Source: an uncultured Planctomycetia bacterium
GTDB taxonomy: Bacteria; Planctomycetota; Planctomycetia; Pirellulales; PALSA-1355
Direction: 5' to 3'
Length of the DNA stretch: 64,000 nt
Assembly: GCA_963699445.1 (NCBI GenBank)
Contig: CAVOTX010000004.1
Coordinates: 81,219 to 145,218 of the forward strand
Within the stretch, counting starts at the first letter, position 1. Each line of letters starts with the position of its first letter. The translations under genes were made by a program, and so were the position numbers. This document shows, piece after piece, positions 2,195 to 18,408 of this stretch. Below the pieces are notes generated by a model, which saw only the letters and a list, made by a program, of their open reading frames with translations, made no database searches and had not been told where the DNA came from.

Positions 2195-5100
2195 TCATCG
2201 GCGGTTGCCGCGCCGGCAGGTCGACCAAGATCGCCGGCGTGTCCGTGCTGCTCGGCGGCGGTTCGACCCCGCGCTGGGGGGCCGATCCTGTGTGCCTTCG
2301 GAATCGTCGCCAGCGTCGACAGGCCGCCCCTGGCGGACGTTGACGTCGATGATCATTCGCTCGCGGTGCGTGTCTCCCTGAACGTAATAGACCCGGTAAT
2401 GGCCGTCCGGCAAACGCTTGAGATAGCCGGGCAAGTTGTCGAGCACGTTTGGCGGCAGCAGGATATCTTCACTTTCCTTGCCCGTCGGGAACACCGTTCG
2501 CATCACGATCTGGTCGTCCGTGATGCCGACGGTCTCCGCCCGGACGGGCGTCAAGTCCGTCACGGCAGCTACGGGCTGCTCCGGAGCAATGAGGAAACTG
2601 GTACCCTCGTTCAGCACGGTTTGCGGCGCCGGTATTGGCGGCGGCGTGGGTTCTGGCAGGAAGGTCACGATGGCCACTCCAGTGCCAGGCACCTGGACCA
2701 GAAAATGCTCCGTCACCGACGAGCCCACCAGTTCGCTGACCGTGACGCTGACCGGAATCGGCGCCGCTGGATCCAGCGGATTGGGCGGTCCAAAATAAAG
2801 ATGCGATAAGGCCAGGCTATCGATGTTGGCGCCGGGCACGGCAAGCACGGTGGTCGTATTGTCGCCCCAAGCCACGGTGACCGTCAGGGGATTCGTCCCC
2901 GGGTCGAACGTCTGGCCGGTGCTCATCGTCATCGACACGACATTCAGCTCGGAAAACTGCGCAAGGCTCAACGTTGGCGTCACGTCCAACACCGTGACTT
3001 GAAACGTCTGCTGCATCGAACCGTGCTGAGGATCGATGATCGTGATCGTGGCCTGATACGTGCCCGTCACGCCATATAAGTGTGTCAATTGAAACGAGCC
3101 CTGCGTAAGCACGCCGACCGAGCCCATCTGCGTCACCGGGGCGGAGCCGTTTTGCACGGCCGACCCGTCGCCCCAGTTGATGCTGTAGGTGAAACTGGGC
3201 GTGTACCCCAATGCCGGCACCGCAAACGTCGGATCGCTGAAACCAATTGTGCTGGTCGTGAACACCGAGCCCTCGTTCAAGGGACCGGCGGCGATGGTGG
3301 TCGTGAATGTCGGCGGCACATCGTTAACCACCAACGTAAAGCTTTCCGTGTCGGAAAGCCCGCCGTTGTCGATCACGGTGATCGTTACCGTGTACGTGCC
3401 TGGCTCGCCGAACGTGTGACTGCCGGCCAACGTCCCGGTCAAGCCGCTCGTCGAACCCGGCGGCCCGAATGGCGACTCGCTGACGACGAGCGATTGCGAC
3501 GAGCCATCGCCCCAATTGATGGTCGCGGTGTGCGTGTCGAGCGTGCCCGGATCGGTAAACGTGACGACTGGCAGTGTGAATAAGCTTCCCTCGTCTACCG
3601 ACTGCGCGGCAACCGGCTGCAGCGTCGGCGCCACGTTGCCGACCACGATCTGGAACGTCTGCGTGCTCGACAGACCGCCATTGTCGGTCACGGTGACCGT
3701 GACCGTGTACGTGCCGAACGTGGCGTAAACGTGCGTGTCCGAGATGCTGCCCGTCTGGCCGCTGGTCGAGCCGGGCGGGCCGAATGGCGACTCGGTGACT
3801 GTCGCGACGTCGGTGGTCGAGCCGTCGCCCCAGTTGACCGTCGCGGTATGCGTGTCGAGCGTGCCCGGATCGCTGAAAGTGACCGTGCCCAGCCCGACCG
3901 TCGAGCCTTCGTTGGTCGTCTCGTTGGCGATCGGGTTGAGCGTAGGCGCCACGTTGCCGACCACGATCTGGAACGTCTGCGTGCTCGAAAGCCCGCCGTT
4001 GTCGGTGACCGTGACCGTGACCGTGTACGTGCCGAACGTGGCGTACACGTGCGTGTCCGAGATGCTGCCCGTCTGGCCGCTGGTCGAGCCGGGCGGGCCG
4101 AATGGCGACTCGGTGACTGTCGCGACGTCGGTGGTCGAGCCGTCGCCCCAGTTGACCGTCGCGGTATGCGTGTCGAGCGTGCCCGGATCGCTGAAAGTGA
4201 CCGTGCCCAGCCCGACCGTCGAGCCTTCGTTGGTCGTCTCGTTGGCGATCGGGTTGAGCGTGGGCGCACGTTGCCGACCACGATCTGGAACGTCTGCGTG
4301 CTCGACAGACCGCCATTGTCGGTCACGGTGACCGTGACTGTGTACGTGCCGAAGGTGGCGTAAACGTGCGTGTCCGAGATGCTGCCCGTCTGGCCGCTGG
4401 TCGAGCCGGGCGGGCCGAACGGCGACTCGGTGACCGTTGCGACGTCGGTGGTCGAGCCATCGCCCCAATTGACCGTCGCCGTGTGCGTGTCGAGCGTGCC
4501 CGGATCGCTGAACGTGACCGTGCCCAGCCCAACCGTCGAGCCTTCGATGGTCGACTCGTTGGCGATCGGGTTGAGCGTGGGCGCCACATTGCCGACCACG
4601 ATCTGGAACGTTTGCGTGCTCGACAGACCGCCATTGTCGGTCACGGTGACCGTGACCGTGTACGTGCCGAACGTGGCGTAAACGTGCGTGTCCGAAATCG
4701 AGCCGGTCTGGCCGCTGGTCGAGCCGGGCGGACCGAATGGCGATTCGGTGACTGTCGCGACGTCGGTGGTCGAGCCATCGCCCCAGTTGACGGTCGCGGT
4801 GTGCGTGTCGAGCGTGCCCGGATCGCTGAACGTGACCGTGCCCAGCCCGACCGTCGAGCCTTCGTTGGTCGTCTCGTTGGCGATCGGGTTGAGCGTAGGC
4901 GCCACGTTCCCCACCACGATCTGGAAGGTCTGCGTGCTCGACAGACCGCCGTTGTCGGTGACCGTGACCGTAACCGTGTACGTGCCGAACGTAGCGTACA
5001 CGTGACTGTCCGAGATGCTGCCCGTCTGGCCGCTGGTCGAGCCGGGCGGGCCGAACGGCGACTCGGTGACCGTTGCGACGTCGGTGGTCGAGCCATCGCC

Positions 5101-8100
5101 CCAATTGACGGTCGCCGTGTGCGTGTCGAGCGTGCCCGGATCGCTGAACGTGACCGTGCCCAGCCCAACCGTCGAGCCTTCGATGGTCGACTCGTTGGCG
5201 ATCGGGTTGAGCGTGGGCGCCACGTTGCCGACCACGATCTGGAACGTCTGCGTGCTCGAAAGGCCGCCGTTGTCGGTCACGGTGACCGTGACCGTGTACG
5301 TGCCGAACGTGGCGTACACGTGCGTGTCCGAGATGCTGCCCGTCTGGCCGCTGGTCGAGCCGGGCGGGCCGAACGGCGACTCGGTGACCGTTGCGACGTC
5401 GGTGGTCGAGCCATCGCCCCAGTTGACCGTCGCCGTGTGCGTGTCGAGCGTGCCCGGATCGCTGAACGTGACCGTGCCCAGCCCAACCGTCGAGCCTTCG
5501 TTGGTCGTCTCGTTGGCGATCGGGTTGAGCGTGGGCGCCACGTTGCCCACCACGATCTGGAAGGTCTGCGTGCTCGACAAGCCGCCGTTGTCGGTGACCG
5601 TGACTGTGACCGTGTACGTGCCGAACGTGGCGTAGACGTGCGTGTCCGAGATGCTGCCCGTCTGGCCGCTGGTCGAGCCGGGCGGGCCGAACGGCGACTC
5701 GGTGACCGTTGCGACGTCGGTGGTCGAGCCATCGCCCCAATTGACCGTCGCCGTGTGCGTGTCGAGCGTGCCCGGATCGCTGAACGTGACCGTGCCCAGC
5801 CCAACCGTCGAGCCTTCGTTGGTCGTCTCGTTGGCGATCGGGTTGAGCGTGGGCGCCACATTGCCGACCACGATCTGGAAGGTCTGCGTGCTCGACAGAC
5901 CGCCATTAATGTCCGTAACCGTCACACTGGCGCTGTAAGTTCCGGCAGTGGCGAATACGTGGGTATCGCTGATCGCATACGTGCCCGGCGTGGCAGTGGC
6001 CGTGACCACACCTAATGAGGTCGTGCCATCGCCCCAATCGATCTGGGCCGTGTACGAGCCATTGGGGTCTGCATCGGAGAACGTTGCACCGGTCAGCGTC
6101 AACGTCGAGCCTTCATTAACGGTCTGCGTGGGGACCGGCGGAATCACGGGGGCCGGGCTAATGACGTCGACGGTAAAGGTCTCCGACGCGCTGTGCCCCA
6201 AACCATCGTTGACCGTGACCGTGGCCGTATAGAGGCCCGGGACCAGATAAGCGTGGCTGCCGCTGAAATCGCCCAGTGTCGGAGTATTAATCCCGCCTGG
6301 CTGCGTGATGTTGGCAGGGCCGGTCGACGACGTGGAACCGTCGCCCCAGTTGATCGTGTAGGTGAAATTCGGCGTGTAGCCTTGCACAGGGCCAGCGAAC
6401 AATGCCTCGCTAAAGCCCACGTTGGTCAAGCTCAACGTGCTGCCCACGTCGAGCGTCACGTCATTCAAGGGGGTCAGGACGGGAGCCACATTGCCGACGA
6501 TCACGATGAAGTTCTGCGTGCCGACACCGCCGTTGCTGTCGGTAACGGTCACGGTGCCGTCGTAGATCCCGGCCGTGGTGTAGACGTGGTTACCGGTCAC
6601 GCTGCCGGTGGTGCCGGTCGGAGTGACGGTGGTGCTCACGGCGCCGATCGAAAGCGGCGATCCGTCTCCCCAATTGATCGTGGATGTGAACGTTTCTTTG
6701 GTGCCCGGGTCGGTAAACGTGACCCCGCCGAGCGTGAAGGTCGCCCCCACGCCGGCGGTTTCATTAGCGATGGGATTGATCGTCGGCGGCACGTTGAGCA
6801 CTTGGACGCTAAAGTTGCCGGTGCCGACAACGTTCTGATCATTGATCACCGCGACGGACACGGGATAATTGCCGACCACGGTATAGTCGTGGCTGCCGGT
6901 GATCGTGCCGCTCGAACCGTCCACGACATACTCGGTCAACGGACCTTCGCCCCATTTGATCACGATCGTATGCGGACCCGAGTTGCCCGGATCGCTGTAC
7001 GTGACGTTGACCAGCGTCACGGTCGTCCCTTCGTTGATCGTCTGGTTGCCGCCAACGGTAACGACCGGACCGGTGCCGATGACGTCGGCGGTAAAGTTTT
7101 CCGACGTGCTGTGCCCCAAACCATCGTTGACCGTGACCGTGGCGGTATAGAGGCCCGGAACCGAATAGACATGGCTGCCGCTGAAATCGCCCAGTGTCTG
7201 GGTATTAATCCCGCCCGACTGTGTGATGTTGGCGCCCCCGGTCGACGACGTGGAACCGTCGCCCCAGTTGATCGTGTAGGTGAAATTCGGCGTGTAGCCC
7301 TGCACGGGCCCGGCGAACAATGCCTCGCTAAAGCCCACGTTGGTCAAGCTCAGCGTATTTCCGACGTCGAGCGTCACGTCGTTCAAGGGGGTCAGGACGG
7401 GAGCCACATTGCCGACGATCACGATGAAGTTCTGCGTGCCGACACCGCCGTTGCTGTCGGTAACGGTCACGGTGCCGTCGTAGATCCCGGCCGTGGTGTA
7501 GACGTGGTTACCGGTCACGCTGCCGGTGGTGCCGGTCGGAGTGACGGTGGTGCTCACGGCGCCGATCGAAAGCGGCGATCCGTCTCCCCAATTGATCGTG
7601 GATGTGAACGTTTCTTTGGTGCCCGGGTCGGTAAACGTGACCCCGCCGAGCGTAAAGGGGGCTCCCACGCCGGCGGTTTCATTGGCGATGGGGTTGATCG
7701 TCGGCGGCACGTTGAGCACTTGGACGCTAAAGTTGCCGGTGCCGACAACGTTCTGATCATTGATCACCGCGACGGAGACGGGAAAATTGCCGACCACGGT
7801 ATAGTCGTGGCTGCCGGTGATGGTGCCGCTCGAACCGTCCACGACATACTCGGTCAACGGACCTTCGCCCCATTTGATCACGATCGTATGCGGACCCGAG
7901 TTGCCCGGATCGCTGTACGTGACGTTGACCAGCGTCACGGTCGTCCCTTCGTTGATCGTCTGGTTGCCGCCAACGGTAACGACCGGACCGGTGCCGAGCA
8001 GCGCGTCGACAACGGTCGGTTGATTGTCGGCCGCGATGTTGCTATTGGACAGCGGAGTGGTTGACGTCGCGCCCGTCGAACCGGTTACGAAAGTGGCGGC

Positions 8101-8694
8101 CGCGGTGCCGGTCGACTGCAAATTGGGCAGAGCCGATTGCGTCTGATGGTTCGTCTTCGCGGCCGGGCCAGCTCCGGCGAAGTCGAATCGCTCGCTGCCC
8201 CGTAGCGCCGGGGACACAAATTCGCTATGAGCGAACTGCGAGTCACGGAAAGAGTGCGGGAACCCCTCATGGCCGGCAAATGTTCGACCGCAACCGTTCG
8301 AACCTTCGACCCACCAGGCCAATGGCGCAAGCGTGGGCCCAGCACCTTGCGTCGGGCCGCCGCCTGCGCGACTTGCCAGCCCGGCAGGTGGCAGCGCCGA
8401 TGCACAATTTGAAGCCGCGGCGGCATGGTTGCCCTGCGTCGCCGAGCCGGAATTCCCGCTGCCGGTCTGATGCGTGCCAGACACGGCCGGCGATCCGGCA
8501 ACGCCGCCGTGCCCCGAATTGGCGAACCAGGGGGCCGAGAAGTGCGGCGCCGTGTCGAGATTCAGCAGGGTGCCGGGCGGTGTCGACGTACCGGGCGCAT
8601 TGGAACTCGAGCCCTGACCGGAGTGAGCAGCCGCGGGGGCTGCGTTCAGCACACGCCGTTCTTCGAGCTGACAGACTTCGAGATGGAGGAGCAA
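2195..8694 (-). CDS. Giant secreted PKD-domain repeat protein (~2170 aa, about 17 PKD-like domains), adhesin-like
   Basis: ORFs 3688..8694 and 2195..5740 join by a single missing C near 4267 (tgggcgcacg here, tgggcgccacg in the sister repeats). The NWGDGS / GxYTVTVTVTD PKD signature recurs. The N-terminus reads LHLEVCQLEERRVLNA. The true start may be ATG ~8806 and the true end ~1920 if further frame slips are allowed. Confidence 0.85.
3628..5905. repeat. Seven near-identical tandem 318-nt repeats, one PKD domain each
   Basis: Antisense ORF starts recur at 3735, 4370, 4688 and 5642, consistent with a ~318-nt period. The protein unit VAPTLNPIANE(TTN/STI)EGSTVGLGTVTFSDPGTLDTHTATVNWGDGSTTDVATVTESPFGPPGSTSGQTGSISDTHVYATFGTYTVTVTVTDNGGLSSTQTFQIVVGN occurs 7 times. 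Confidence 0.9.
6163..7998. repeat. Two tandem copies of a 918-nt block, three PKD domains each
   Basis: Antisense ORFs at 6608..6838 and 7526..7756, and at 6636..6842 and 7554..7760, are 918 nt apart and nearly identical. The 306-aa protein blocks differ at about 12 positions. Confidence 0.9.
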
Positions 8695-9414
8695 ATCCTC
8701 ACGCAGCCTACGGGCGGGCGAGTCGCGGCGACGAACTGTTCCAAAGCGCCGCGATCCTCCGGCTGCGGAGCTTCTGAATCAGGGTCGCCAACAACATCGC
8801 AGTCGTTCTCCCTGCGGCGGGCTGCGGACTTGCCGTGGTCGTCGCAACCGGCACATTTTTCTTACTCGCCGGCGCCGAACCGGCTTGGGTTCCGGCGGCA
8901 TGGCCCGACGCACTCGCCCCCAGGACGGTCGCGCCGGCGGCGGGCGTTTCGCCCCCTTTAAGCCGCTATGATTCAAGGGCTTAACCGGTCCAACGATTAT
9001 CACCAGCCGAGGTGGTGAGTGTCAAACGTTCCGGTCGTAAGCGGTGTGGCTTGCCAGCATTGCGCCTCGAAATGCCGGCTCGCCTCGGCGGCTGCCAATC
9101 GCCGAGATTGGGGCCGGCGCTCCCCTTCAGGCCTGTGGCCACCGACTGCGGCGAAACGGGCGATCGCGCCAGCGACGAGCCGGCAAACCGCGTTGAGTTT
9201 TCCGTCCCGGCGCGCCCTGGCCGGCCGGGCAGTTGCCCGAAATTTGGCCGCTTTGTAACGATTATGCCGAGCAGCCCGATTGATCCGGTCATAGCGATTC
9301 GAGCGCATGTCGTGCGTGTACTGAATGTTCCTGGCGTGCCGGGCCGAAGACAGGAGCAACGCATCCCGCTGCCTGGCGGCCACCCTCCCAACCGCGGAAC
9401 AGGAAGGCAATACG

Positions 9415-10375
9415 ATGTCAGTCGCGGTCACGAGCAATCGTCCCCAGACTGCCGGCCGCCGGGCCTGGCATTACTGCTTGCTGGCCACCGCGCTCGGCGG
9501 CTTTGCGGCGGCCAGTGGCCGAGCAATGGCCGATCCGGGCGCACGGCGCAGGCATTGCAATCCGGGCCGATTCACACGTCAGTCCCCGTCGACACTCCGA
9601 GCGCCCGACCGCGGCTTATGCCCTCTGAGTTGACCCCGGCGGCAACGCTCTCGCGCTTGCCGGCGGCAGAGCCCGTGCCGACCGAGTTGCCGGCGACGCA
9701 GTCGTCGGCCGGCGTGATACCGACGAGCCTGCTGCAGCCGCTCCAGCGGCGCGAACTGTGGGCTCCGGACTTCGTGACGACCCAACCGGCGGCCGACAGA
9801 ATCGGCGCAGCGATGCACACGGTCCAATTGCCTGGGCGGCGTGTTCTGCCGGTGCCTGAAGAGGTAACGGGCCGTCCGAATGGTGGTAACGGCGGTGCGA
9901 TCCCGTTCGACGACGACATCAAGCCGCTCGTCGCCACTCGAACCAACTTGCAACCGCCGCCGGGCGAAATGCCGATGGACTACGCCGAGCGCAGTTCGAA
10001 GCCGAGTTGCCCATTGTCGGCGGCGGCCCGGACGATCGGCGGCCGACGGACGTGGTCTACTTTTACGAAGCGTCGGCGCTCTGTTTTCAGCCGATCTACA
10101 TCGAGGACGTGAACCTCGAGCGGTACGGCTATTCGCACGGCGTGCTGCAGCCGTTCGTATCGGCGGTGCACTTCTTCGGCACGATTCCGCTGTTGCCCTA
10201 TAAGATGGGCATGCACCCGGAGCGCGAATGCGTGTACGCGCTCGGGTACTACCGCCCGGGCAGTCCGACGCCGTATCAAACCAGCCGCCTCGGCTGGAGC
10301 TTGCGCGGGGCGATCTACGAAGCGGGCGCGATCGGCGCGTTCATCGCTTGGATTCCGTCGGGCAAGTTCTATTGA
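9415..10375 (+). CDS. Conserved secreted hypothetical protein with a C-terminal IYIEDVNLERYGYS motif
   Basis: ATG at 9415 follows GGAAGG. The N-terminus MSVAVTSNRPQTAGRRAWHYCLLATALGGFAAASGRAMA looks like a signal peptide. Coding continues through the frames of ORFs 9012..10112 and 10007..10375, so at least 2 frame breaks. The C-terminal 122 aa have normal protein composition. Confidence 0.6.
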
Positions 10376-10505: not shown

Positions 10506-12722
10506 CTAGAGCCGGAAGCGAAACGTGCCGGCAAGAAGTCGCATCAGGCGACGACCGAGCGATTGGGGATCGGCCAGGATCTTTGCCTGCGCCGTGGCGC
10601 CGGACGCAAGCGGCGGATGTTCGAGTTCGAGCGCTACCCGGGCCTGATAGCAAGTTCGCAGCGGGGTGTGCAGGCCGGCGGCGTCGTGGCGTGTCGGCAA
10701 TTGTCCCTGTTCGATCAGTTCGGGTGGTGCTTCGGCCAGATCGATTTGGGCCAGCTCCGAGACGACCCCCTCCAACTGCCAGGTCGGCAATTGATCGAGC
10801 AGTAAGAGCACTTTCTGGCCGGCGCGGACGAATTCGACCTGGTCTTCATCGACGAGCAACAGCGCCTCGAGTCTCTGCGGATCGCCGACCAGGCACAACA
10901 GGGTGCCGGTTTGCAGGAAACACCCGCGATTGTCCTCGTCCAAGGGATGGCCGCTCCAGGTGGCCAGTTCTCCGTGGGCCGCCTGCGCCGGGTGGATTCG
11001 CGGCGGCAGGACGGTTCCTCGGCAGGGGGCGAGAATGGTCAAGCGCTCGCGTTCGGCCAGGCGCTGTTCGAGTCGCCGCTCGAGATCCGCGAGTGCCGCC
11101 TCGGCGGTCGGGATTTCGGCGCCGGCCTGCGGCGCGTCGACCTGCTGTCGCTTGAGATTGGCCAACCTGGTTTGCTGCTGATTGCGCTCGCCACGGAGCC
11201 TGGCAATTTCCAAGTCCATCTCCAAATTGGCGAGTTGCGCGAAGGGCTGATCGGCTTGGACCTGTGCGGCGGCATCGACGGAACTGGCCAACCTGCCGGG
11301 CACCGAGACGTAAACGCGCCGTGCGCCCGCCGATTCGACCAGCGCCGGAACGCGGATCCGATGCGGCAGCGGCAGATGCCACAAGCCAAAGCCGCACAGC
11401 AGCAACAATCCGCACGCCACGACCAACCGCGGCCAGTGCAACCGGCCGCCAGCCAGCGGGCGACGGGCATAATGCAACACTTGCCGCCAGGGATTGACCA
11501 ATAAGGCCGCCGTCATGACGCCCGCCAGGATCACGGCAAACAGCTCGAGCCGATACGGCTTGAGGGCCTGGTAGCAAAACCAGGCAATGGCCAGCGACGC
11601 AAACCAACGGTAGGCCAGCGACGCCAGGGCATACACGACCAGCCAGCCGCCGGACTTTTCCGACAGCAAGTCGCCCTGCGGCAATTTCTGAACCAGAAAC
11701 GGGCCCACCACGAAGCGCCGCACGCTGCCGCAGACCGCTCGTGCAGATTCGGAATCTCCAACAGATCGGACAGCAGGTAGTAGCCGTCGTAACGCAACAG
11801 CGGGTTGCCGTTGAACAACAGCGTGCTGAGCGAACAGACGATCATCAGATTGAAACAGATGGAATTGAACCAGCCCGGCACGCTGAACCACCACAGCAAT
11901 GTGCAGGCCGCCGCCAGCACGAACTCGACGAACATTCCGGCCACGTCGACGGCGACCCGCCGCCAGCGACTGCCGAACATCCAGGCATCGGACACGTTGC
12001 AATACAAGCAAGGCAGGAATACGAGCAGCAGAATTCCTAATTCGTGGCACTGGCCGCCGAAGTGCCGGCAGGCCAGGGCGTGCGCCAGCTCGTGAAGCGT
12101 TTTCGCCACGACGACCGATAGCGCCAGCCAGCCGGCGTTGCGGAGGCTGAAGAACGCCTGAAATTCGGGCAATCGCAGCGCCACCTGGTCGGCCTGCACA
12201 GCCAGCAGCCCCAGTGCAAACAGCATGGCGCCGAGTGCCGCGCCCACCGCCCAGGGTGAAAACATCCAGCGGCAATACGGATACACCGCGTCCAACAAGG
12301 GTTGCGGATCGACGCCGCGCGAGCGCAGAGCCAGCAGGTTGGTCCAACCCCAGATGTGCCGTTCGCGCCGACGCCCTGCCCTGCGCTTGAGCGTTTGCAC
12401 GGCCTGGCCCGGCGAATCGCAGATCAACAGACCCTCTGCGTGCAGCCGGGCGATGAACGACATGAGTTGTCCGGCGCCAACCCGGCGCGGGGCAAACTGC
12501 CGCTCGCAGTGCGCTGGATGCGTTCGACACTCGTTTGTCCGTCCAACTCGCCGAGCACGAAGAACTCTTCCCGGCTCAGCTCGAAATGCCGTTGCGAGAG
12601 TGGGTCTTTGATCCGCCAGTACTGCCCGTCGCCTGAGCCAAAGGCGCGGCATTCGAGATCCGGCCGCTTGCGCAGCGGAACTCGCGCTCAGCGGCGGACG
12701 CAAGCAGAGTGGCTGTTGCCAT
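10506..12722 (-). CDS. Fusion protein: PqqD/RRE-like N-domain, M50 site-2 metalloprotease and C-terminal HlyD-type membrane-fusion domain
   Basis: N-terminus reads VPLRKRPDLECRAFGSGDGQYWRIKDPLSQRHFELSREEFFVLGELDGQTSVERIQ..ERQFAPRRVGAGQLMSFIARLHAEGLL. M50 motifs are HELAHALACRHFGG and NGNPLLRYDGYY. The C-terminus has a coiled coil plus a beta-barrel-like part (ANLEMDLEIARLRGERNQQQTRLANLK...ILAPCRGTVL). At least 3 frame breaks (~12680, ~12510, ~11730). Confidence 0.8.
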
Positions 12723-12737
12723 GGGGGAGGCGCGGGC

Positions 12738-13643
12738 TCAGGGTTGTCGCGGGGAGAATGGCTCGATGGTCATTTCCGCCGCCACGCCCGGGCGCAGCAG
12801 CAGGTCCTGGTTCTCCAGTTCGGCCCAGACCCGAATCTGACCGTTCACCGGATTCACTTCCGGACTGACGAACACGAGCTTGCCGGTGAATGCGGCCTTC
12901 GGCCGCTCGGGCAGGTCGACGCGCACGGTGACGGGTCGGCCGACGGCGCTCGCGTCGAGCTGCTTGGCGCTGACGAAGCCTTCGGCGCCAAGCGGTCGAG
13001 GCGCAGCACGCGGACGACACTCTCGCCGGCTTGCACCCACTCGCCGCGGCGGCGTTTGATCTGCACGACCATGCCGTCCAAGGGCGACGAGCAGCCGGCG
13101 GCGCTCGACGTCGAGAGCGGCGGCGGCCAGTTCGCTGTTCTTGAGCTCGGTGGTGAGCTTGGCAACGGTCAGATTGTGCTCCGCTTGCTCGACCTCGAGC
13201 GCGGCCTGTTCGGCTGCCAGACGCAGTTGATCGATTTCGGACCCTGTCACGCTCTTGCGGTATTTTTCGATCGACGCGTTCGCTCGCTGGAACTCGACTT
13301 TGGCAGTCGCCAGCGCGTCCTTGGCATAACGGACTTTGACGGTGTTCGAGTCTTCTTTGGCGGCGATGTCGTACTCGGTCTGGGCGCGGCGTTTGGCGAT
13401 CTGCGCGGCGGCATCGTCGACCTGGGCCAGCAGATCGCCGACCGAGACCATTTGCCCCTCGCGAACCGCAATCTTCGCGAGCATGCCCGGCTCCGGCGCG
13501 GCCACTTCGGCCTGGTCGATCAAGCTGATCAGCACCGAATCGGCTTTGACCGCCTTGTCCGCCTTTTCAGGATGCTCGCCCGCGGCGCCTGCACCCAATG
13601 CCAAAGTCGACAGCAGGATCAAGCTCGTCCCGATGGCGTTCAT
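12738..13643 (-). CDS. Periplasmic adaptor (membrane-fusion protein, HlyD/RND-MFP type)
   Basis: Starts MNAIGTSLILLSTLALGAGAAG. Lipoyl-like hairpin AAPEPGMLAKIAVREGQMVSVGDLLAQVDD, a coiled coil, a second lipoyl half SSPLDGMVVQIKRRRGEWVQAGESVVRV (visible in an alternative frame), and VFVSPEVNPVNGQIRVWAEL. Two frame breaks near 13080-12960. Confidence 0.8.
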   Translation of the reverse strand: MNAIGTSLILLSTLALGAGAAGEHPEKADKAVKADSVLISLIDQAEVAAPEPGMLAKIAVREGQMVSVGDLLAQVDDAAAQIAKRRAQTEYDIAAKEDSNTVKVRYAKDALATAKVEFQRANASIEKYRKSVTGSEIDQLRLAAEQAALEVEQAEHNLTVAKLTTELKNSELAAAALDVERRRLLVALGRHGRADQTPPRRVGASRRECRPRAAPRPLGAEGFVSAKQLDASAVGRPVTVRVDLPERPKAAFTGKLVFVSPEVNPVNGQIRVWAELENQDLLLRPGVAAEMTIEPFSPRQP

Positions 13644-13684
13644 AGATACGGTGCTCCCGGAAAAATGTTTTAAGCTCGGCAAAG

Positions 13685-15803
13685 TCAGAATAGCAACCGC
13701 CGGCGGACCAGCGAAATCAGATCGTGGAACCAAACGTAACCGATCGCCCGGCGGCCGCATCGAATCTTGCCGATCACGCTGGCGCCGGGCCGCAGCCCGC
13801 TGACGCTCTCGCGATCGATGGCCACGGTGACCAACACGTGCGCACCGTAGACCTCGTCGATTTGTGCCGCCAGCGCCGTCTTTTCGATGCGTCCCCGATA
13901 CGTCTGGCCCGGATCGGTCGCCAGCAAGAAGTCGACCTCCAACCGGGAATCCTGCGCCTGCTCGGCCTGGAGCACGTAACCGGCATGATCGTCCGGCAGC
14001 CGCAGCTCCAATTGCCAGGGGCCGGCCAGATCGCCGACCGCGAGCAACACTTGCCCCCGTTGCACGGGCCGACTTTCGAGCAGTTGTTGCACGTCCCAAG
14101 TCAAGACTTGTCCGTCGATGGGACTGGTCACCTCCAACTCGGCCTGCTGGCGGCGGAGAATCTGCTCCTGGTCGGACAAGCTCGCCAGCAGTTCCTTGAG
14201 TTCTTCTTCTTCAGCGGTGAGTTGGTTGTAGCGCTGGGGCGTATCGGTCTTGCCACGCTCAGGTCCCAGTCGCTCGGCCTGCACGCCGGCCAATCGCTTG
14301 CGTGCCGTTTGCGTCTCGCCCAGCACGCGGTGCAGTTCAAAATCGAGCTGCGGCCGGCGGAGAGTTATCAGCACCTCGCCCGCCCTGACATTGCCCCGAT
14401 CGGCAACGTGAATTTCGCTGACGATCGAGTCGCTCGGCGCGAACACATCTCGCCGCGTGCGGGGTTGTAGTTCGCCGCGGGCCTCGATCGAAAAATCGGC
14501 CGGGTAGAAAGTCAATAGCGCCGCAGCCAGCAACACCGCCAGCCCGCAGGCCAGCGTCTTGGGCAATTGCCTGGCCTTGGTCAGCCACTTCAAGCCCAAC
14601 AGGCCGCGTTCCAATTTCAACAAGGGCAACGATTCGTATTCAACGGCGTTGGCCAGTGCCGAGGCCGCATGGCGGCTGACCGCTTCGGTGCGCGCGACCA
14701 GCGCCGGATCCACGGACGCCGCGTGAAACTGCTCGACGAACAACAGTCCGATCGGTTCCGACCCGCTCGCCGGCTCTCCATCGGGCGGCCGCTTGACCAG
14801 CGGAATCGCGCCGAACACGCGGGCGTGCGACTCGTCCAGGCAGGCATCCAAAGCCTGCTCCAACGCGGGGGCCAATGTCTCGCGGGCCGCCGGGTACCAA
14901 AGCGTCTCGCCGAAGATCAGCACCCGCCGGCCAAGCTCCTCCAGCCGCTGCACGAGATTGCTGCGCCGCTCGACGTCATCGGCCCCGCTGACCGCCGTCA
15001 GCCGGCACTTGCCCGAGCGCCAGACTGCCAGGCTCAACCGATCGCAACCGATCAGCCGCCGCCCTTCATTGACAATCGCATGAGCCGTGGATGCCAGTTC
15101 CAGACGACCGTGAACGGCCTCGATGAATTGCTGGAGCCCGCGCCACTGTCCTTCGCGAACGGCGAAATCGCGGAGCCGGCCGTGCCGCTGAAAGTCGGCG
15201 GCCAATTCACCCAGCGCCGCCAGTAGCGGCAAGACTTTGCGCTCGGAAAGAACGGTGCCGTCCGCGCGATGGCACAGCTCGATTGCTCCGATCGATTCGG
15301 CTCCCAGTCGCACAGGCGAAAACAACAGCAGCCCGTGTGACGGATTATCCGTCCGCGCGGAACGGTCCGCCGCATCGGAGGCGGCGCCCGGCGGAATCAT
15401 CGACCGCGGATCCAGTCGACATGGCTCGCCCCGAGCGCAGACCGACTGCAGCAATTGCTGATGGTGCGCGGGTCGCTTCGGCGGATGCATCGAACCCCGT
15501 CGCGGCGAAGTTCCAATCGGCTTCGCGCAGCAGTTCGCCGTCCGGCGAACGCAGCCAGACCGCGCCGGCGAAGTGCGCCAGCGCAGCGGCTGCTTTTTCG
15601 ATCAGCGCCGTGTGAAAATCGTGACTGGAAATATTGGACGTGGAAAGCTCGGCGATCTCCTCCAGCGCAGCCTGAATTTCGTGCCAGAGCGGCTCGCTGC
15701 TCGACACGTCGCTGGAGGCAATCTCGCGGACCATGACTTGCTCTGCGGTCACTTGTTCGATGAGCGCTGGCTCGACTGGCAAGCCATTTGGGCACCCGGG
15801 CAA
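13685..15803 (-). CDS. Two GAF-like cytoplasmic domains, a TM helix and a HlyD-type membrane-fusion domain
   Basis: ORF 13685..15490 plus the upstream frame 15345..15803, with one break near ~15470. GAF-like blocks include IVNEGRRLIGCDRLSLAVWRSGKCRLTAVSG...IGLLFVEQF...ALANA. TM helix LACGLAVLLAAALLTFY. HlyD part IVSEIHVADRGNVRAGEVLITL, a coiled coil, and SPIDGQVLTWDV. Confidence 0.75.
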
Positions 15804-15958
15804 TGCGCACTCGGTTGCCAGCGGCGGGCGTTCCCCGTGCTAGCGCTGCTCAGCCGCCGACGCTGCCTCTCAGTATAAGCTGCCGCCCCGGCGCGTCCGC
15901 ATTCGGCGGCCTGCCAGCAGGCTTGGGTCTAGCCAGGGCATCCAACCCGGAGGAATGG

Positions 15959-16039
15959 ATGAATTGGGGGGCATTTTCGTCGTATCAGGGCCGGGCGGAC
16001 TGGGAGAAGTTTGTCGGTCATAGCGACTTTGACGAGTGA
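15959..16039 (+). CDS. Candidate 26-aa small ORF (MNWGAFSSYQGRADWEKFVGHSDFDE) in the divergent intergenic region
   Basis: GGAGG at 15949-15953 lies 5 nt upstream of ATG 15959. The aromatic/acidic composition contrasts with the Arg/Ala/Pro-rich noncoding frames around it. The stop is at 16037-16039. Confidence 0.3.
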   Translation: MNWGAFSSYQGRADWEKFVGHSDFDE

Positions 16040-16161
16040 TTCGCTCGACTTTTTGCCGATCTATACCCCACCGTGGAAGGTTTTTCCTCGGGCGTGGTTC
16101 GGTATTTGGCGTGTGCCCGAACTCGTTTGGTGCCCACTGGAACAAGGAGACTGTCTAGGCC

Positions 16162-18323
16162 ATGTGTCGCGTGCGGGTGTGGACGATTGCAGGAACTGCC
16201 GCAGCACTGTTGCTGGCCGGCTGCAACTTGCCGCACGCCGAACCTGGCCGATCCGGAACTGGGCACTACAAGACCACGGCAACCGGGCTCGACTATCCCG
16301 ACGCCAAAGCGCCGCCGCCGGCACCGCTTGTGGAGATGCGTTCGCCGCTGGAAACGGGCCGCGATGCGCCCCTGAGTATTGGGAGCTGTCGCTGCTCGAA
16401 GCCATGCGCCTGGCGCTGGTCAACTCCAAAGTCCTCACGGAAATCGGCGGACAGGTGCTGCAGTCGCCGGCCAACGTGCGGACGACGCACGGGCCGGCGA
16501 TCACCGAAACCGACCCGCGGTTCGGCGTCGAGGCCACGCAGGCCGCGTTTGACCCGGTCTTTTCGGCCTCGTCGAATTTCAACAAGAACCATTACGCCAT
16601 CAACAACATCTTCTTCGGCGGCGGCACGCGCGTCGTGGAACAGGATACCGCGGACTTCTCAACCGAGCTCACCAAGCGCACCGCCACCGGCGGCACATTT
16701 TCATTGAGCAACAACACGGATTACGACGCCAACAACACGCCGGGCAATTTGTTTCCGCACGCCTGGAATACGGTCAATCAAGCGACGTTCCGGCAACCCT
16801 TGCTCCAGGGAGCCGGCGCGGAGTTCAATCGGATTTACGGACCGCCCAACGTGCCGGGCGTGTTCAGCGGCGTGCCCGGCTATGCCAACGGCGTGATGGT
16901 GGCCCGCATCAACACGGACATCAGCTTGACCGAACTCGAGACCGGCCTGCGCGACCTGGTGAGCAACGTGGAGAACGCCTACTGGGACTTGTACTTCGCC
17001 TATCGCGACCTGGATGCCAAGATCGCCGCCCGGGATAGCGCTTTGGAAACCTGGCGCCGCGTCCACGCCCTGTTCGTCAGCGGCCGCCGGGGGGGCGAAG
17101 CCGAAAAGGAAGCCGAAGCCCGCGAGCAGTACTTTCGCTTCCAGGAAGAAACCCAGGTCGCCTGGTACGGCCGGCTGGTGCAGGGCACGACCGTGTTCAA
17201 CGGCAGCGGCGGCGGCAGCTGCGCGGGGCTGAGTGGCGTGCGCGTGGCCGAGGCGCCGGCTGCGCATGCTGATGGCGATTCCGATCAACGATTGCAAGCT
17301 CATTCGTCCGTGTGACGAGCCGCGCCGGGCAAAAGTGATTTTCGATTGGAAGGAAATCCTCAAAGAGGCGCTGGTACGGCGCGTCGAGCTGCGCCGGCAG
17401 AAATGGGTGATCAAGCGGCGCGAGCTGGAATTGATCGGCAGCCGGAATTTTCTGCTCCCCAACCTCGATACCCTGGGCTACTACCGCTTCCGCGGCTTCG
17501 GCGAGAACCTCGTCGACTTCAACAACGACATCAACGTCAACCGCTACGACAACGCGCTGCAAAACTTGTACAGCGGACAGTTCCAGGAATGGCAAGCCGG
17601 GTTTCAATTTTCGGCCCCGCTCGGTTTCCGCCGCGGCCATGCCGCGGTGCGCAACGCCGAACTGCAACTGGCGCGGGAACGGGCCATCTTGGTGCAGCAG
17701 GAACGCGAAATCTCGCTGGCCCTGAGCAATGCTCTATGCGAAGTCGAACGCGCTTACGACTGCACCTGGACCAGCTACAACCGCCGCGTGGCCGCCCGGC
17801 AGCACCTGGCCGCCGTGGCGCCGCGTTCGAGTCCGACAAGGCGCAGTCCGAGCTGGTGCTTGACTCCCAGCGTCGGCTGGCCGAGGCCGAGATCCGCTAT
17901 TTCGGCTCGCTGACCGAATACGCGCTGTCGATCAAGAACGTCCACTTCGAAAAAGGCTCGCTGCTCGACTACAACGACGTGTATCTGGCCGAAGGCCCGT
18001 GGCCCGGCAAGGCCTATGACGACGCGGCCGAGCGGACCGCCCTGCGCCGCCCCGAACGCGAACTGAACTACCGCTTCCTGCGGCAGCCGCTCCAGGTGAG
18101 CGAGGGCAGCTACCAGCAGATCACGCCCCCCTCGGTCCAGCCGCGGGAATTGAACGCGCCCATTCCGCCCGCCGGCCCGCCCGCCGCCGCTGGCCAGGCC
18201 CTGCCGGAAAACATTCCGGCGCCGGTCGCGCCCTGGACGGAACCGCTGCCCCTGCCGGAACTGCCGCAATTGCCACCGCCGCCGCAGCAAGACTTGTCGC
18301 CGTTTCCGGCACGGCCGCTGTGA
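16162..18323 (+). CDS. TolC-family outer-membrane efflux protein, lipoprotein form
   Basis: AAGGAG lies 12 nt upstream of the ATG. Lipobox AALLLAGC. OEP-like segments LSLLEAMRLALVNSKVL, ENAYWDLYFAYRDLDA, ERRLRMLMAIPINDCKLIRPCDEP and LQLARERAILVQQEREISLAL. At least 3 frame breaks (~16370, ~17255, ~17815). Confidence 0.8.
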
Positions 18324-18325
18324 GT

Positions 18326-18376
18326 GGAAGGATGAAGGCGGCCTGCGGCGGGCTCCGCCGAGCGGAAGGATGAAGG
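18326..18376. repeat. Two direct copies of GGAAGGATGAAGG flanking a small CGGCGG-gct-CCGCCG hairpin
   Basis: Exact 13-mers at 18326-18338 and 18364-18376, with the hairpin at 18346-18360. The element lies between convergent gene ends at 18323 and 18409. Confidence 0.5.
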
Positions 18377-18408
18377 ATGAAAAAACGCGCGTCTTTGTGG
18401 CGGCGTTT

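Follow-up and report, generated by a model that had tools for sequence, protein, structure and literature searches.

Once nine frameshifts are repaired, the window (the whole 64-kb stretch of DNA that was analyzed) encodes a trio of minus-strand genes and one plus-strand gene. The minus-strand genes are separated by gaps of 41 nt (13685/13643) and 15 nt (12738/12722). The four genes, their coordinates and strands, and both gaps agree with the initial annotation, except that the first gene of the trio had been started at 15803, whereas an ortholog places its likely true start at 15734 (MVREIASSDV). The features are as follows.

13685..15803, minus: GAF-GAF-TM-adaptor (GAF-adaptor), identified by HlyD_3, with GAF via orthologs
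14566-14501, minus: single TM helix of the GAF-adaptor
12738..13643, minus: plain periplasmic adaptor (membrane-fusion protein, MFP), ~301 aa, with a signal or anchor at the N terminus
10506..12722, minus: fusion of a PqqD/RRE-like domain, an M50 site-2 protease, and an adaptor (M50-adaptor), ~739 aa, identified by profile matches and AlphaFold2
~12653-12425, minus: PqqD/RRE-like cytoplasmic domain of the M50-adaptor
12094-12080, minus: HELAH of its 7-TM site-2 protease
12013-11987, minus: PCLYCNVSD in the protease
11806-11783, minus: NPLLRYDG in the protease
~11375-10509, minus: periplasmic adaptor domain of the M50-adaptor
16162..18323, plus: TolC-family (OMF) outer-membrane lipoprotein, ~706 aa, identified by OEP and a lipobox
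9537..10375, plus: convergent gene x387 (a label without function), encoding a signal peptide and a C-terminal domain that is conserved
2195..8797, minus: candidate cargo, a ~2,200-aa giant surface protein with PKD repeats, identified by leader and PKD

The frameshifts, all within 7.8 kb and spread across the four genes, were located by comparison with an intact ortholog (L001; 73-87% identity). They lie at ~12684, 12508, and 11725 in the M50-adaptor gene, at ~15450-15469 in the GAF-adaptor gene, and at ~16360, 17230, and 17820 in the TolC gene, with a compensating pair within ~13090-12965 in the plain adaptor gene; none falls at a homopolymer. Because neighboring genes, among them the giant PKD gene and ABC-2-like open reading frames (ORFs), are broken at equal density, we read the frameshifts as assembly noise rather than pseudogenization.

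The convergent gene x387 is frameshifted near 9920-10016, has an uncertain start, and ends in a domain marked by PLYFEE..LERYGY, in which LERYGY spans 10115-10132. Its last 150 residues are 79% identical by tblastn to a 387-aa protein of L001, and homologs lie between the M50-adaptor and leader-bearing genes in 11 clade-A loci; it matched no Pfam family. Adjoining the 3' end of the TolC gene is a frameshifted ABC-2-permease-like remnant (18409-20224, minus; 16 to 20 bits), which is without an ATPase and is absent as a conserved gene from orthologous loci.

Domain architecture of the adaptors and the TolC-family channel

Window domain scores come from Pfam and NCBIfam profile searches on hand-spliced proteins. 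The GAF-adaptor consists of two cytoplasmic GAF-like domains, a TM helix, and a periplasmic membrane-fusion domain, in line with the single chain previously described. HlyD_3 (36.6 bits) is above cut-off; GAF_3 (23.0 bits) and GAF (19.5 bits) are both under cut-off in the window copy, and GAF rises above it in L001 (26.8 bits) and reaches 50 to 55 bits in alphaproteobacterial orthologs. The plain MFP was likewise borne out, with HlyD_3 at 76.6, HlyD_D23 at 74.3, Biotin_lipoyl_2 at 34.8, and RND_mfp at 120.9 bits (cut-off, 94.9), and it is 80% identical to its L001 ortholog.

In the M50-adaptor, HlyD_3 (25.3 bits) is above cut-off and Peptidase_M50 (22.7 bits) is under its cut-off of 27.2, and a 77% identical ortholog, P0001, reaches 31.6 bits for Peptidase_M50. 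M50, HlyD_3, and HlyD_D23 were matched by 16 of 16 homologs and PqqD by 8 of them, with alphaproteobacterial orthologs scoring 28.7 bits for PqqD. As orthologs score higher, the sub-threshold domain calls in the window are upheld, and with them the proposed three-part fusion, in which HELAH and NPLLRYDG are both present. H211, E212, H215, and D313 are invariant among 117 homologs. The AlphaFold2 model of P0001 (pLDDT, 84.7) comprises an N-terminal domain with a predicted RRE-like beta3-alpha3 topology, seven TM helices, and a MacA/EmrA/MexA-like adaptor, and it places the RRE-like domain and the protease active site on the cytoplasmic face. The best Foldseek matches of the model were MacA, EmrA, MexA, and AcrA, and PDB sequence matches of the adaptor included EmrA, MacA, and a fused TriAB adaptor.

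Residues 38 to 415 of the M50-adaptor match NF041824 (daptide_HExxH; E = 1.3e-44), and the EpeP/YydH/LiaK model NF058609 also matches the N-terminal half. E values against these RiPP leader peptidase models were 1e-44 to 1e-47, and Streptomyces plasmid daptide mpaP genes were matched directly in the homology search. Judged by these alignments, the PqqD/RRE-like and 7-TM HExxH module is homologous over its full length to the leader peptidases MpaP and EpeP/YydH. EpeP is described as probably cleaving as well as exporting its peptide (PMC10885120). Because of the NF041824 and EpeP matches, leader recognition followed by cleavage, as first proposed, is a reasonable reading of the M50 half, with its intact site-2 protease site; the small-peptide substrate proposed along with it is unlikely, as giant genes adjoin the cluster.

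The TolC-family protein is, as initially called, a divergently transcribed lipoprotein, with LLLAGC as its lipobox (16162-16224) and a C-terminal tail rich in Pro. OEP scores 36.1 bits in the window copy and 41.4 bits in L001 (cut-off, 22), and the two proteins are 60-87% identical over four frame pieces.

Distribution of the cluster and its leader-bearing giants

The order GAF-adaptor, adaptor, M50-adaptor recurs at 57 of the 63 planctomycete loci with enough upstream DNA, and a divergent OMF homolog occupies the same position at 18 of 53 such loci. The three-adaptor core is thus conserved, but the TolC linkage is not universal. Relatives occur in at least 586 species-representative genomes, and 4,024 clusters (50% identity) in a library of 1.84 billion proteins match the M50-adaptor at E ≤ 1e-30. 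The system is widespread, from planctomycetes to Escherichia coli plasmids. In proteobacterial operons a giant gene comes first, followed by TolC, two adaptors, and the M50-adaptor; in Burkholderia anthina, for instance, a 3,302-aa DUF4347 protein precedes TolC, MFP, MFP, and M50-MFP. Giant-headed operons were also found in Azospirillum brasilense Sp7 and Cupriavidus metallidurans CH34, and the giants reach 7,208 aa in Niveispirillum, 8,847 aa in Methylosinus, and 12,918 aa in Pseudosulfitobacter, where RefSeq names the product "LEPR-XLL domain-containing protein." On E. coli IncF plasmids, the giant has 4,457 aa, and 24 of 5,426 complete genomes carry the operon.

The likely cargo in the window had been overlooked initially: it is the giant at 8797-2195 (minus), which is frameshifted at ~8732 and inside its repeats. 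Its Arg-rich N-terminal leader (8797 to ~8635; MLLATLIQKLRSRRIAALWNS...RRLREDLLLHLEVCQLEERRVLNAAP) is without a hydrophobic signal segment and ends in LEVCQLEERRVLNAAP. The C-terminal 700 aa score 104 bits for PKD_4, with RTX repeats absent. A leader hidden Markov model (HMM) found the same leader downstream of the M50-adaptor at 10 other planctomycete loci, two of which (L020 and L046) were outside the training set. With the window included, 11 planctomycete loci encode a large protein with L.V..LE[EQD]R.VL[SN] on the same strand, 0.6 to 4 kb downstream. These proteins share the leader but have largely unrelated bodies. The proteobacterial and E. coli plasmid giants (3,300 to 12,900 aa) start with ...ALEPRxxFDA, and in each of the seven proteobacterial giants an initial basic segment leads into (A)LE[PS]R-hyd-hyd-[FYL]-[DSN]-[AG]. 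The similarity of leaders across phyla rests on a short motif. Among nine cargo C termini tested, all had Ig, cadherin, PKD, or LamG adhesin domains and none had RTX repeats, and by these domains the cargos do not resemble type I substrates.

The proteobacterial leader matches the NCBI "LEPR-XLL" motif and resembles the "Planctomycete extracellular" signal of 2004; cargo leaders share with NF012209 and PF07595 an LE-x-R-hyd-hyd core on very large extracellular-type proteins. The models lend weak support to kinship of the leaders: the NF012209 LEPR-8K model gives 14.4 bits for the Burkholderia giant and 12.2 bits for a 9,054-aa planctomycete giant, PF07595 matches the L068 giant, and the window variant (LEVCQLEERRVLNAAP) lies under detection by both. 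PF07595 is described as a presumed novel N-terminal export signal in PMC8567305, which cites Studholme 2004, and the available portions of PMC8567305, PMC3343278, and PMC10868602 assign no export machinery to either motif. Some LEPR-XLL giants elsewhere, for example in Vibrio, carry C-terminal RTX domains (PMC10868602), which suggests type I export of those proteins, with the leader possibly serving a different role.

The association of leader and cluster is not uniform. A leader-bearing gene is missing within 10 kb at about half of the planctomycete loci in which TolC is linked, L002 and L006 among them, and such a gene is rare in the large clade B. L002 and L006 are close relatives of the window locus. 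A reverse search found one leader-bearing protein on a contig without the cluster nearby.

Some operons also contain a truncated SecA paralog, located within the operon at the alphaproteobacterial loci L093, L094, and L095 and directly upstream of the GAF-adaptor gene at the planctomycete loci L031, L068, L078, and L084. These paralogs score 303 to 347 bits for SecA_DEAD, possess a preprotein-binding domain, and are 45-50% identical between phyla; none is present in the operons of the window lineage, Burkholderiales, Azospirillaceae, or E. coli plasmids. The absence of a pump therefore need not mean the absence of a motor, and SecA, as a protein-translocation motor, argues for polypeptide export.

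Candidate export of giant surface proteins and competing readings

Starting from the observed gene set, homologies, synteny with leader-bearing giants, and conservation of the leader, our best reading is a leader-dependent processing and secretion system for giant adhesins, new to the literature and family libraries that were searched. We give a probability of about 0.55 to the four genes being the envelope machinery of such a conserved, cross-phylum system, as sequence and structural modeling suggest, and the PKD-repeat giant at 8797-2195 (minus) is most likely its cargo in the window. The anatomy fits the interpretation first offered, whose small-peptide substrate needs to change. Its claim that no characterized system has this architecture agrees with our searches, in which we found no paper describing such an adaptor/M50 arrangement and no dedicated NCBIfam model.

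In the cytoplasm, the M50-adaptor would bind the basic, non-hydrophobic leader (...L.V..LE[EQDP]R.[VL][LF][SND].A) through its RRE/PqqD-like domain. The chain would then cross the inner membrane N terminus first, threaded at or beside the 7-TM protease domain, and enter a duct formed by the periplasmic domains of three different adaptors docked on the TolC-family channel. The site-2 protease would cut off the leader, freeing the N terminus, and the GAF domains may serve cytoplasmic regulation or assembly. Threading would be driven by the SecA-type ATPase where the operon has one; in window-type lineages, the force may come from housekeeping SecA, from pushing during translation, or from a folding ratchet outside the cell. 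What weighs against export is that an inner-membrane channel for a chain of 2,000 to 13,000 aa is without a candidate, and we know of no site-2 protease that acts as a translocase.

The accessory Sec system (SecA2/SecY2) of Gram-positive bacteria exports giant serine-rich adhesins. It shares with the loci bearing a SecA paralog a dedicated SecA beside a giant adhesin, and adhesins in both have an unusually long, specialized N-terminal leader. However, SecY2 and Asp proteins were not seen here, the hosts are diderm with an adaptor-TolC duct, the SecA paralog is missing from the window and most loci, and the leader is without a hydrophobic core. PCATs, such as the colicin V exporter CvaAB-TolC, follow a common logic, in which a leader is cut by a protease of the export machine ahead of an adaptor and TolC. 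Their protease is a C39 cysteine peptidase on an ABC transporter, whereas here it would be a site-2 metalloprotease on an adaptor, and PCATs are ATP driven with small cargos.

It is conceivable, although unlikely, that the complex controls the giant rather than exporting it, as a signal-regulated intramembrane protease that cuts the leader with GAF as its cytoplasmic sensor. Cleavage would then either free the adhesin from a TolC-type pore or keep it there, comparable to LapD/LapG acting on LapA, or pass on an envelope signal through regulated intramembrane proteolysis. The parts are Lap-like (a giant adhesin with a special N terminus, a protease, a TolC-family pore, and a cytoplasmic domain of the nucleotide-sensor type), site-2 proteases classically serve signaling, and some LEPR-XLL proteins elsewhere resemble type I substrates (PMC10868602). 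However, the giant has no other linked exporter at any locus, no LapG- or LapD-type gene is annotated at any of the loci read, and three adaptors plus TolC would be elaborate for a mere regulator. Also, the modeled RRE-like domain and protease site are cytoplasmic, while LapG works in the periplasm, and the SecA paralog of some operons speaks for export.

We give little credence to the substrate being a small, leader-bearing RiPP-like peptide, bound by the RRE-like domain, cleaved by the M50 domain, and diffusing out through the adaptor-TolC duct, which would make the system a diderm counterpart of EpeP or MpaP, fused to an adaptor. This would require no motor, and it draws on the homology of the M50 half to daptide and epipeptide leader peptidases, the PqqD matches of several homologs, and the cleavage and export of a 17-aa peptide thought to be carried out by EpeP (PMC10885120, PMC12871923). 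Yet ~100 loci show neither a small precursor gene nor a radical-SAM or other modifying enzyme in or beside the cluster, the scores are far under the equivalog cut-offs (153 versus 300; 41 versus 225), and the SecA paralogs suggest long polypeptides. The recurrent neighbor is a giant protein, and the likely substrates have 2,000 to 13,000 aa. Unlike in MpaP and EpeP, the module here shares its chain with a periplasmic adaptor and has two further adaptors and TolC as partners.

An ordinary tripartite efflux or type I system, with its ABC, RND, or MFS transporter encoded elsewhere and the protease and GAF fusions as accessories, seems similarly improbable. Adaptors are usually partnered with an energized transporter, and OMF genes are often unlinked from pumps, as TolC is at most planctomycete loci here. 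The adaptor domains resemble MacA, EmrA, and AcrA, and the Vibrio LEPR-XLL giant has RTX domains. With type I and tripartite pumps (HlyBD-TolC, LapEBC, MacAB-TolC, EmrAB-TolC, and TriABC-OpmH), the cluster has in common a TolC-family channel and periplasmic adaptors of lipoyl, beta-barrel, and hairpin architecture; Lap-type systems likewise have giant repetitive adhesin-like cargos, and TriABC sets a precedent for more than one kind of adaptor. However, an intramembrane metalloprotease here takes the inner-membrane position of the transporter, two of three distinct adaptors are fused to cytoplasmic or membrane modules, and the cargo signal lies at the N terminus instead of the C terminus, on cargos without RTX. 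The initial observation of no pump in or next to the operon extends beyond the window: Walker-A and LSGGQ motifs are absent from all 64 kb, and within ±10 kb at 85 related planctomycete loci there was one ABC-like ORF, an unrelated 2,312-aa protein, and no RND-like ORF. No ABC, RND, or MFS pump is present at the window locus or conserved at ~100 related loci, nor does one occur in the compact plasmid-borne proteobacterial operons, including the mobile five-gene set of E. coli IncF plasmids.

Finally, it is very improbable that the nine frameshifts, off homopolymers as they are, mark a decaying pseudogene cluster in which nothing is functional, given that unrelated neighbors are equally broken, translations between breaks are 73-91% identical to intact orthologs with no in-frame premature stops, every catalytic motif is intact, and related contigs of similar assemblies are also fragmented.

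Genes and domains of the cluster

Three-frame translation and alignment to the intact ortholog set on a related planctomycete contig (L001) recovered the four genes that the initial annotation had proposed, a TolC-family gene and three consecutive adaptor genes separated by 41 and 15 nt, each where it had been placed. They are listed here together with two neighbors.

Genes of the cluster and its immediate surroundings in the window
16162-18323, plus strand: TolC-family lipoprotein; three frameshifts
15803/15734-13685, minus strand: GAF-GAF-TM-adaptor (GAF-adaptor); one frameshift
13643-12738, minus strand: plain adaptor; two compensating frameshifts
12722-10506, minus strand: fusion of PqqD-like, M50, and adaptor domains (M50-adaptor); three frameshifts
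~9537-10375, plus strand: x387 (named here), convergent, downstream of the M50-adaptor gene; L001 copy at 12232-13395, minus strand
8797-2195, minus strand: giant PKD-repeat protein, a candidate cargo lying beyond x387 and absent from the initial annotation

The region has a G+C content of ~64% and is frameshifted throughout. The indels do not fall at homopolymers, and a homopolymer origin is not supported; because unrelated genes nearby are equally broken, we treated them as assembly noise. Between breaks, the translations are 73-91% identical to their orthologs, and every catalytic motif is intact. The x387 product has a signal peptide, a hydrophobic tail, and a conserved C-terminal domain (PLYFEE..LERYGY..HFF..LPYKM..YRPGS..PY), and a Pfam search placed it in no family; its position between the M50-adaptor gene and a leader-bearing giant gene is constant in 11 loci of the clade that includes the window (clade A). 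An Rfam scan of the whole window gave no match, and a promoter and terminator scan gave matches at chance level. One sigma-70-like site (9025-8996, minus strand; TTGACA, 18-nt spacer, GATAAT; 11/12 matches) lies ~200 nt 5' of the candidate cargo start, such sites occurring in the region at chance number. Overlapping ORFs with tandem LDRTIDSTSLPPGGVGRTAGA repeats are present at 696-1870.

Hand-spliced window proteins were searched against curated cut-offs, and the proposed domain calls stood to differing degrees. The plain adaptor and TolC passed: the plain adaptor matches HlyD_3, HlyD_D23, and RND_mfp, and TolC matches OEP above its cut-off. On the window copy, the GAF calls were just under the cut-off (23.0 and 19.5 bits), and M50 (PF02163) scored 22.7 bits against a cut-off of 27.2. 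These weak calls are rescued because intact orthologs match, with GAF at 26.8 bits in the L001 ortholog and 50-55 bits in alphaproteobacterial orthologs, PF02163 at 31.6 bits in P0001 (an M50-adaptor homolog 77% identical to the window protein), and M50, HlyD_3, and HlyD_D23 in 16/16 M50-adaptor homologs. For the putative PqqD domain, PF05402 gave no match on the window copy, weak matches in 8 of 16 homologs (best E value, 6e-4), and a match above the cut-off, at 28.7 bits, in the Methylosinus ortholog. An NCBIfam search gave a TIGR03859 match at an E value of 1e-5. The site-2 protease (S2P) motifs HELAH (12094-12080) and NPLLRYDG (11806-11783) are present in the window, and their residues are invariant in 117 homologs. 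By sequence criteria, the M50-adaptor is a site-2 protease (Peptidase M50), and proteolysis is predicted.

An AlphaFold2 model of P0001 (117 aligned sequences; pLDDT, 84.7) agrees with the topology proposed initially for the M50-adaptor, with the N terminus inside and the C terminus outside. Its N-terminal domain has a beta3-alpha3 arrangement (strands 24-28, 35-40, and 45-50; helices 51-59, 66-77, and 84-96), so that the modeled domain shows an RRE/PqqD topology. The model has seven TM helices, with HExxH and NPLLRYDG towards the cytoplasmic face, and a C-terminal adaptor whose best PDB matches by Foldseek are MacA, EmrA, MexA, and AcrA. With the whole model, Foldseek returned adaptor matches alone and no RRE structure match, its output being dominated by adaptors, so that the RRE and S2P parts receive no separate support from fold comparison. 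A PDB sequence search with the M50-adaptor profile returned adaptors only, plus a marginal match to the M. jannaschii S2P. Four near-invariant cysteines (C219, C226, C239, and C242; P0001 219-242, window ~12070-11987; motif PCLYCNVSD) lie in a beta-hairpin after the HExxH helix. This cluster could be a second metal site; such a cluster is atypical of RseP or SpoIVFB.

Conservation, candidate cargo, and leader

The M50-adaptor family comprises >2,098 clusters at 90% identity among 8,000 candidates scored, and 4,024 clusters at 50% identity match the M50-adaptor at an E value of <=1e-30. Relatives occur in at least 586 species-representative genomes, the best 80 being all from Planctomycetota, and current annotation names the family only "HlyD family efflux transporter periplasmic adaptor subunit" or "site-2 protease family protein." The GAF-adaptor and plain adaptor genes lie directly upstream of the M50-adaptor gene in 57 of the 63 loci with enough upstream DNA. 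A divergent TolC gene is found in 18 of 53 loci, all in clade A of a neighbor-joining tree; in clade B, TolC is not linked. The conserved core is the three adaptors, and the TolC part of the proposed four-gene arrangement is not generally co-conserved.

Genes for BBP7 ("putative beta-barrel porin-7") adjoin TolC-less clade-B clusters in L078 (2628-4043, minus strand; 331 bits), L068 (1321-2463, minus strand), and L058 (4980-6599, plus strand). BBP7 could be an alternative outer-membrane partner in clade B. A divergent 576-628-aa gene in a Pirellulales sublineage was rejected as an outer-membrane factor (OMF), with no Pfam family and BLASTP E values of >0.3 against the OMF of the cluster; it and a 1,208-aa downstream gene are conserved in a narrow subclade only. 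Clusters may also be duplicated: in L084, a second, divergent set of adaptor, GAF-like adaptor, and M50-adaptor genes (15607-20618) lies 3 kb downstream of the first, and several other genomes have two M50-adaptor loci on separate contigs (e.g., L037/L043, L010/L075, and L008/L079).

The giant protein of the window has an Arg- and Trp-rich N terminus, MLLATLIQKLRSRRIAALWNS...RRLREDLLLHLEVCQLEERRVLNAAP, with no hydrophobic signal-peptide core. We searched for similar leaders by a motif scan and then with an HMM made from nine leaders. Ten other clade-A loci have a large ORF that starts with the leader L.V..LE[EQD]R.VL[SN], on the same strand and 0.6-4 kb downstream of the M50-adaptor gene, and leaders outside the training set in L020 and L046 (Rhodopirellula sp. 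SM50) matched the HMM at E values of 6e-5 to 9e-5. The leader-bearing proteins have bodies of 440 to >9,000 aa that are mostly unrelated to one another. Judging by these sequences, it is the leader, not the protein body, that travels with the cluster. An LE-x-R-hyd-hyd core is visible in all cargo leaders examined.

Two existing families touch on this leader. The L068 giant has a generic leader of a related kind, RLETLEARQLLA, which matches PF07595, "Planctomycete extracellular," at 18.2 bits (cut-off, 25.5), and NF012209 (LEPR-8K) gave sub-threshold matches to the Burkholderia anthina giant (14.4 bits; cut-off, 17) and to a 9,054-aa planctomycete giant in L003 (12.2 bits). The window cargo matched neither family at an E value of <=10. 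PF07595 is described in PMC8567305, citing Studholme et al. (2004), as presumably a new kind of export signal at the N terminus of planctomycete surface proteins; we found no machinery reported for this signal in the literature searched (PMC8567305 and PMC3343278).

Association with a leader is not universal: about half of clade-A loci and most clade-B loci have no leader-bearing gene within 10 kb. A reverse search with a 10-leader profile against a 5.8-billion-protein index gave only 4 short matches, a result that we take to be neither for nor against the association, because short motifs are poorly served by the word index. The single match on a long contig had no cluster in its surroundings; leader-bearing proteins thus also occur away from clusters.

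Related operons in other phyla

When P0001 was compared by tblastn with plasmids and chromids, full-length PqqD-M50-adaptor homologs, 26-28% identical across 93-97% of the length, were found beside giant genes.

Operons outside Planctomycetota, with the giant protein followed by the associated genes
Burkholderia anthina: giant 3,302 aa, DUF4347; then TolC, adaptor (~265 aa), adaptor (~480 aa), M50-adaptor
Azospirillum brasilense Sp7: giant 4,195 aa as annotated, DUF4347; then TolC, adaptor (~262 aa), adaptor (~454 aa), M50-adaptor
Cupriavidus metallidurans CH34: giant 3,750 aa, DUF4347; then TolC, adaptor (273 aa), adaptor (449 aa), M50-adaptor
Niveispirillum: giant 7,208 aa, DUF4347; then TolC, adaptor (~244 aa), adaptor (~446 aa), M50-adaptor
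E. coli, Citrobacter, and Hafnia plasmids: giant 4,457 aa (Ig-like, DUF4347-like); then TolC, adaptor (~293 aa), adaptor (~449 aa), M50-adaptor
Methylosinus: giant 8,847 aa; DUF3467, GAF-adaptor, PqqD-M50-adaptor, truncated SecA paralog, adaptor, TolC
Pseudosulfitobacter: giant 12,918 aa; GAF-adaptor, PqqD-M50-adaptor, SapC, truncated SecA paralog, adaptor
Rhodobacteraceae M382: giant upstream; GAF-adaptor, M50-adaptor, truncated SecA paralog

In all seven giants whose N terminus was read, a basic segment at the start leads into (A)LE[PS]R-hyd-hyd-[FYL]-[DSN]-[AG], and the RefSeq name of the Pseudosulfitobacter giant (L094) is "LEPR-XLL domain-containing protein." Not every locus has an obvious cargo, since the neighboring 1,412-aa HrpK-domain protein of Phyllobacterium lacks the leader. 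The enterobacterial plasmid operon occurs in 24 of 5,426 complete E. coli genomes. In both B. anthina and A. brasilense, the DUF4347 giant gene is immediately preceded by a hypothetical gene of ~107 aa and by small genes (205-228 aa) annotated as "tail fiber protein" (L089 5432-6438; L090 3913-5774).

The alphaproteobacterial SecA paralogs are truncated (638-691 aa), with SecA_DEAD at 303-347 bits and the preprotein cross-linking domain present. Two of them carry the mistaken RefSeq name "prepilin peptidase" (WP_244635385.1 and WP_114295152.1; L095 14126-16042 and L094 16978-19002); their SecA_DEAD scores (331-347 bits) and preprotein-binding domain mark both as truncated SecA paralogs. Counterparts at 45-50% identity lie directly 5' of the GAF-adaptor gene in clade-B loci L031, L068, L078, and L084, which with the alphaproteobacterial L093, L094, and L095 are the loci containing the paralog. 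No SecA-like sequence was found in the window, nor in or near the operon in Burkholderiales, Azospirillaceae, or E. coli plasmids. A 10-TM SecY-like ORF was neither flagged by TM count in the SecA-containing planctomycete loci nor annotated in L093-L095. Planc_extracel-type giants lie within 5 kb in L068 and L078. In 14 clade-B loci and in Methylosinus, a gene for a small DUF3467-like protein adjoins the three-adaptor set (L068 12395-12796; L078 12272-12805; L095 9648-9968); sequence searches of PDB and NCBIfam gave this protein no match.

Inner-membrane passage and comparison with known systems

We searched for a pump by scanning six frames of 85 planctomycete loci (flanks of up to 10 kb) and the window for Walker A and ABC signature motifs and by counting TM helices for RND- or MFS-like ORFs (>=900 aa with >=10 TM helices). 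Within the 64-kb window, neither a Walker A nor an LSGGQ motif occurs. Among the 85 loci, the only ABC-like ORF is an unrelated 2,312-aa protein and none is RND-like, the sole ORF of the required size and TM count being an MFS-spermine-synthase fusion in L003. Polytopic neighbors are not conserved, flanking genes vary from locus to locus, and the proteobacterial operons contain no annotated ABC gene. The initial claim that the cluster lacks a pump is upheld, ABC and RND genes having been sought in orthologous loci as the evidence that would overturn it. Two ABC-2-type permease-like halves at 18409-20224 (minus strand), frameshifted and directly after the TolC 3' end, were rejected as part of the system: they score 16-20 bits (Pfam, below cut-off), the window has no ATPase, and they are not syntenic elsewhere. 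L096 does have a type I secretion gene pair, unrelated and on the opposite strand, ~3 kb downstream of the operon. An unlikely alternative is that a pump is encoded in trans, away from the neighborhoods scanned.

Type I secretion systems share with this gene set a membrane-fusion protein and a TolC-family OMF (HlyD_3, RND_mfp, and OEP matches; MacA, EmrA, and MexA by Foldseek), but have an HlyB-type ABC inner-membrane transporter, which we did not find here. They are also defined by RTX repeats or a C-terminal secretion signal. Some LEPR-XLL giants elsewhere have RTX domains (PMC10868602); the C-terminal 700 aa of the nine cargos tested contained no RTX repeats (HemolysinCabind), and all nine C termini have Ig, cadherin, PKD, or LamG domains. 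Cargo with an uncleaved C-terminal signal and no RTX repeats would be compatible with these sequences. Tripartite RND, ABC, or MFS efflux pumps likewise have the exit duct in common, but encode an energized polytopic transporter with the adaptor, which is lacking here. A release or retention device resembling LapD/LapG is a less likely alternative, although no listed neighborhood has a gene for a LapG-type cysteine protease or a LapD c-di-GMP receptor. Accessory Sec (SecA2) shares a SecA paralog, a giant adhesin, and a long leader, but the window has no such paralog.

PCATs also have a leader protease built into the exporter, and EpeP and MpaP have a homologous protease; EpeP is thought to cleave and also export (PMC10885120 and PMC12871923). 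Residues 38-415 of the M50-adaptor match NF041824 (daptide intramembrane leader peptidase) over the full model length (E value, 1.3e-44), but the equivalog cut-offs of these RiPP leader peptidases are not reached, at 152.8 bits against 300 for NF041824 and 41.2 against 225 for NF058609 (EpeP/YydH/LiaK); proteobacterial orthologs score likewise below them. The initial annotation had envisaged that a leader-bearing peptide is recognized, cleaved, and passed to TolC. This small-peptide version is an unlikely alternative, as no small precursor peptide or modifying enzyme gene was found in the planctomycete or proteobacterial neighborhoods examined. The three-adaptor system lacks at least one defining feature of each of these families.

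Taken together, the gene set is modular, with three distinct adaptors, one fused to RRE and S2P domains and one to GAF, with or without TolC, the SecA paralog, and DUF3467. It is tied by synteny to giant adhesin-like proteins with a common leader, in at least four bacterial classes and two phyla. The most far-reaching reading, to which we give a probability of roughly 40%, is that it is an unrecognized diderm secretion system, in which giant adhesins are exported N terminus first, the RRE-like domain reads the LEPR-XLL or "Planctomycete extracellular" leader, and the duct-fused S2P cuts them free. The RRE-like domain would bind the leader, the S2P would remove it, and the adaptors and TolC would form the exit duct. 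The chain might cross the inner membrane by means of a SecA-type motor, by co-translational threading, or through an extracellular folding ratchet.

In the literature searched, no paper joined a site-2 protease with HlyD; DUF4347 and LEPR-XLL were mentioned incidentally only, and M50/HlyD/PqqD matches were irrelevant. None of the components has a model of its own in NCBIfam release 20 (June 2026), and RefSeq names are generic. For these reasons we place the system, with its predicted functions, outside the secretion and efflux types described so far, in line with the initial view that no experimentally characterized system of this architecture is known. To our knowledge, all established whole-envelope routes via a TolC-type channel use an ABC, RND, or MFS transporter. 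Here the position of the pump is taken by an intramembrane protease with a putative peptide-recognition domain, sometimes plus a SecA paralog. If the system exports the neighboring proteins, this would be a new secretion logic for the largest bacterial proteins (2,000 to 13,000 aa). The secretion reading, if true, would also assign a machine to the "Planctomycete extracellular" motif, proposed as an export signal in 2004, and to NCBI LEPR-XLL. The system extends from Planctomycetota to mobile E. coli plasmids. Plasmid-borne giant adhesins may bear on colonization by clinical and wastewater enterobacteria.

C. metallidurans CH34 and A. brasilense Sp7 have the complete operon, as do plasmids of E. 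coli, Citrobacter, and Hafnia, so that the hypothesis can be tested directly in standard hosts. On the E. coli plasmid pABWA45_1 (L101; NZ_CP022155.1 118682-138427), the five-gene operon is flanked by IS1, and the leader of its 4,457-aa giant reads ...RFALESRQLFDGAA.
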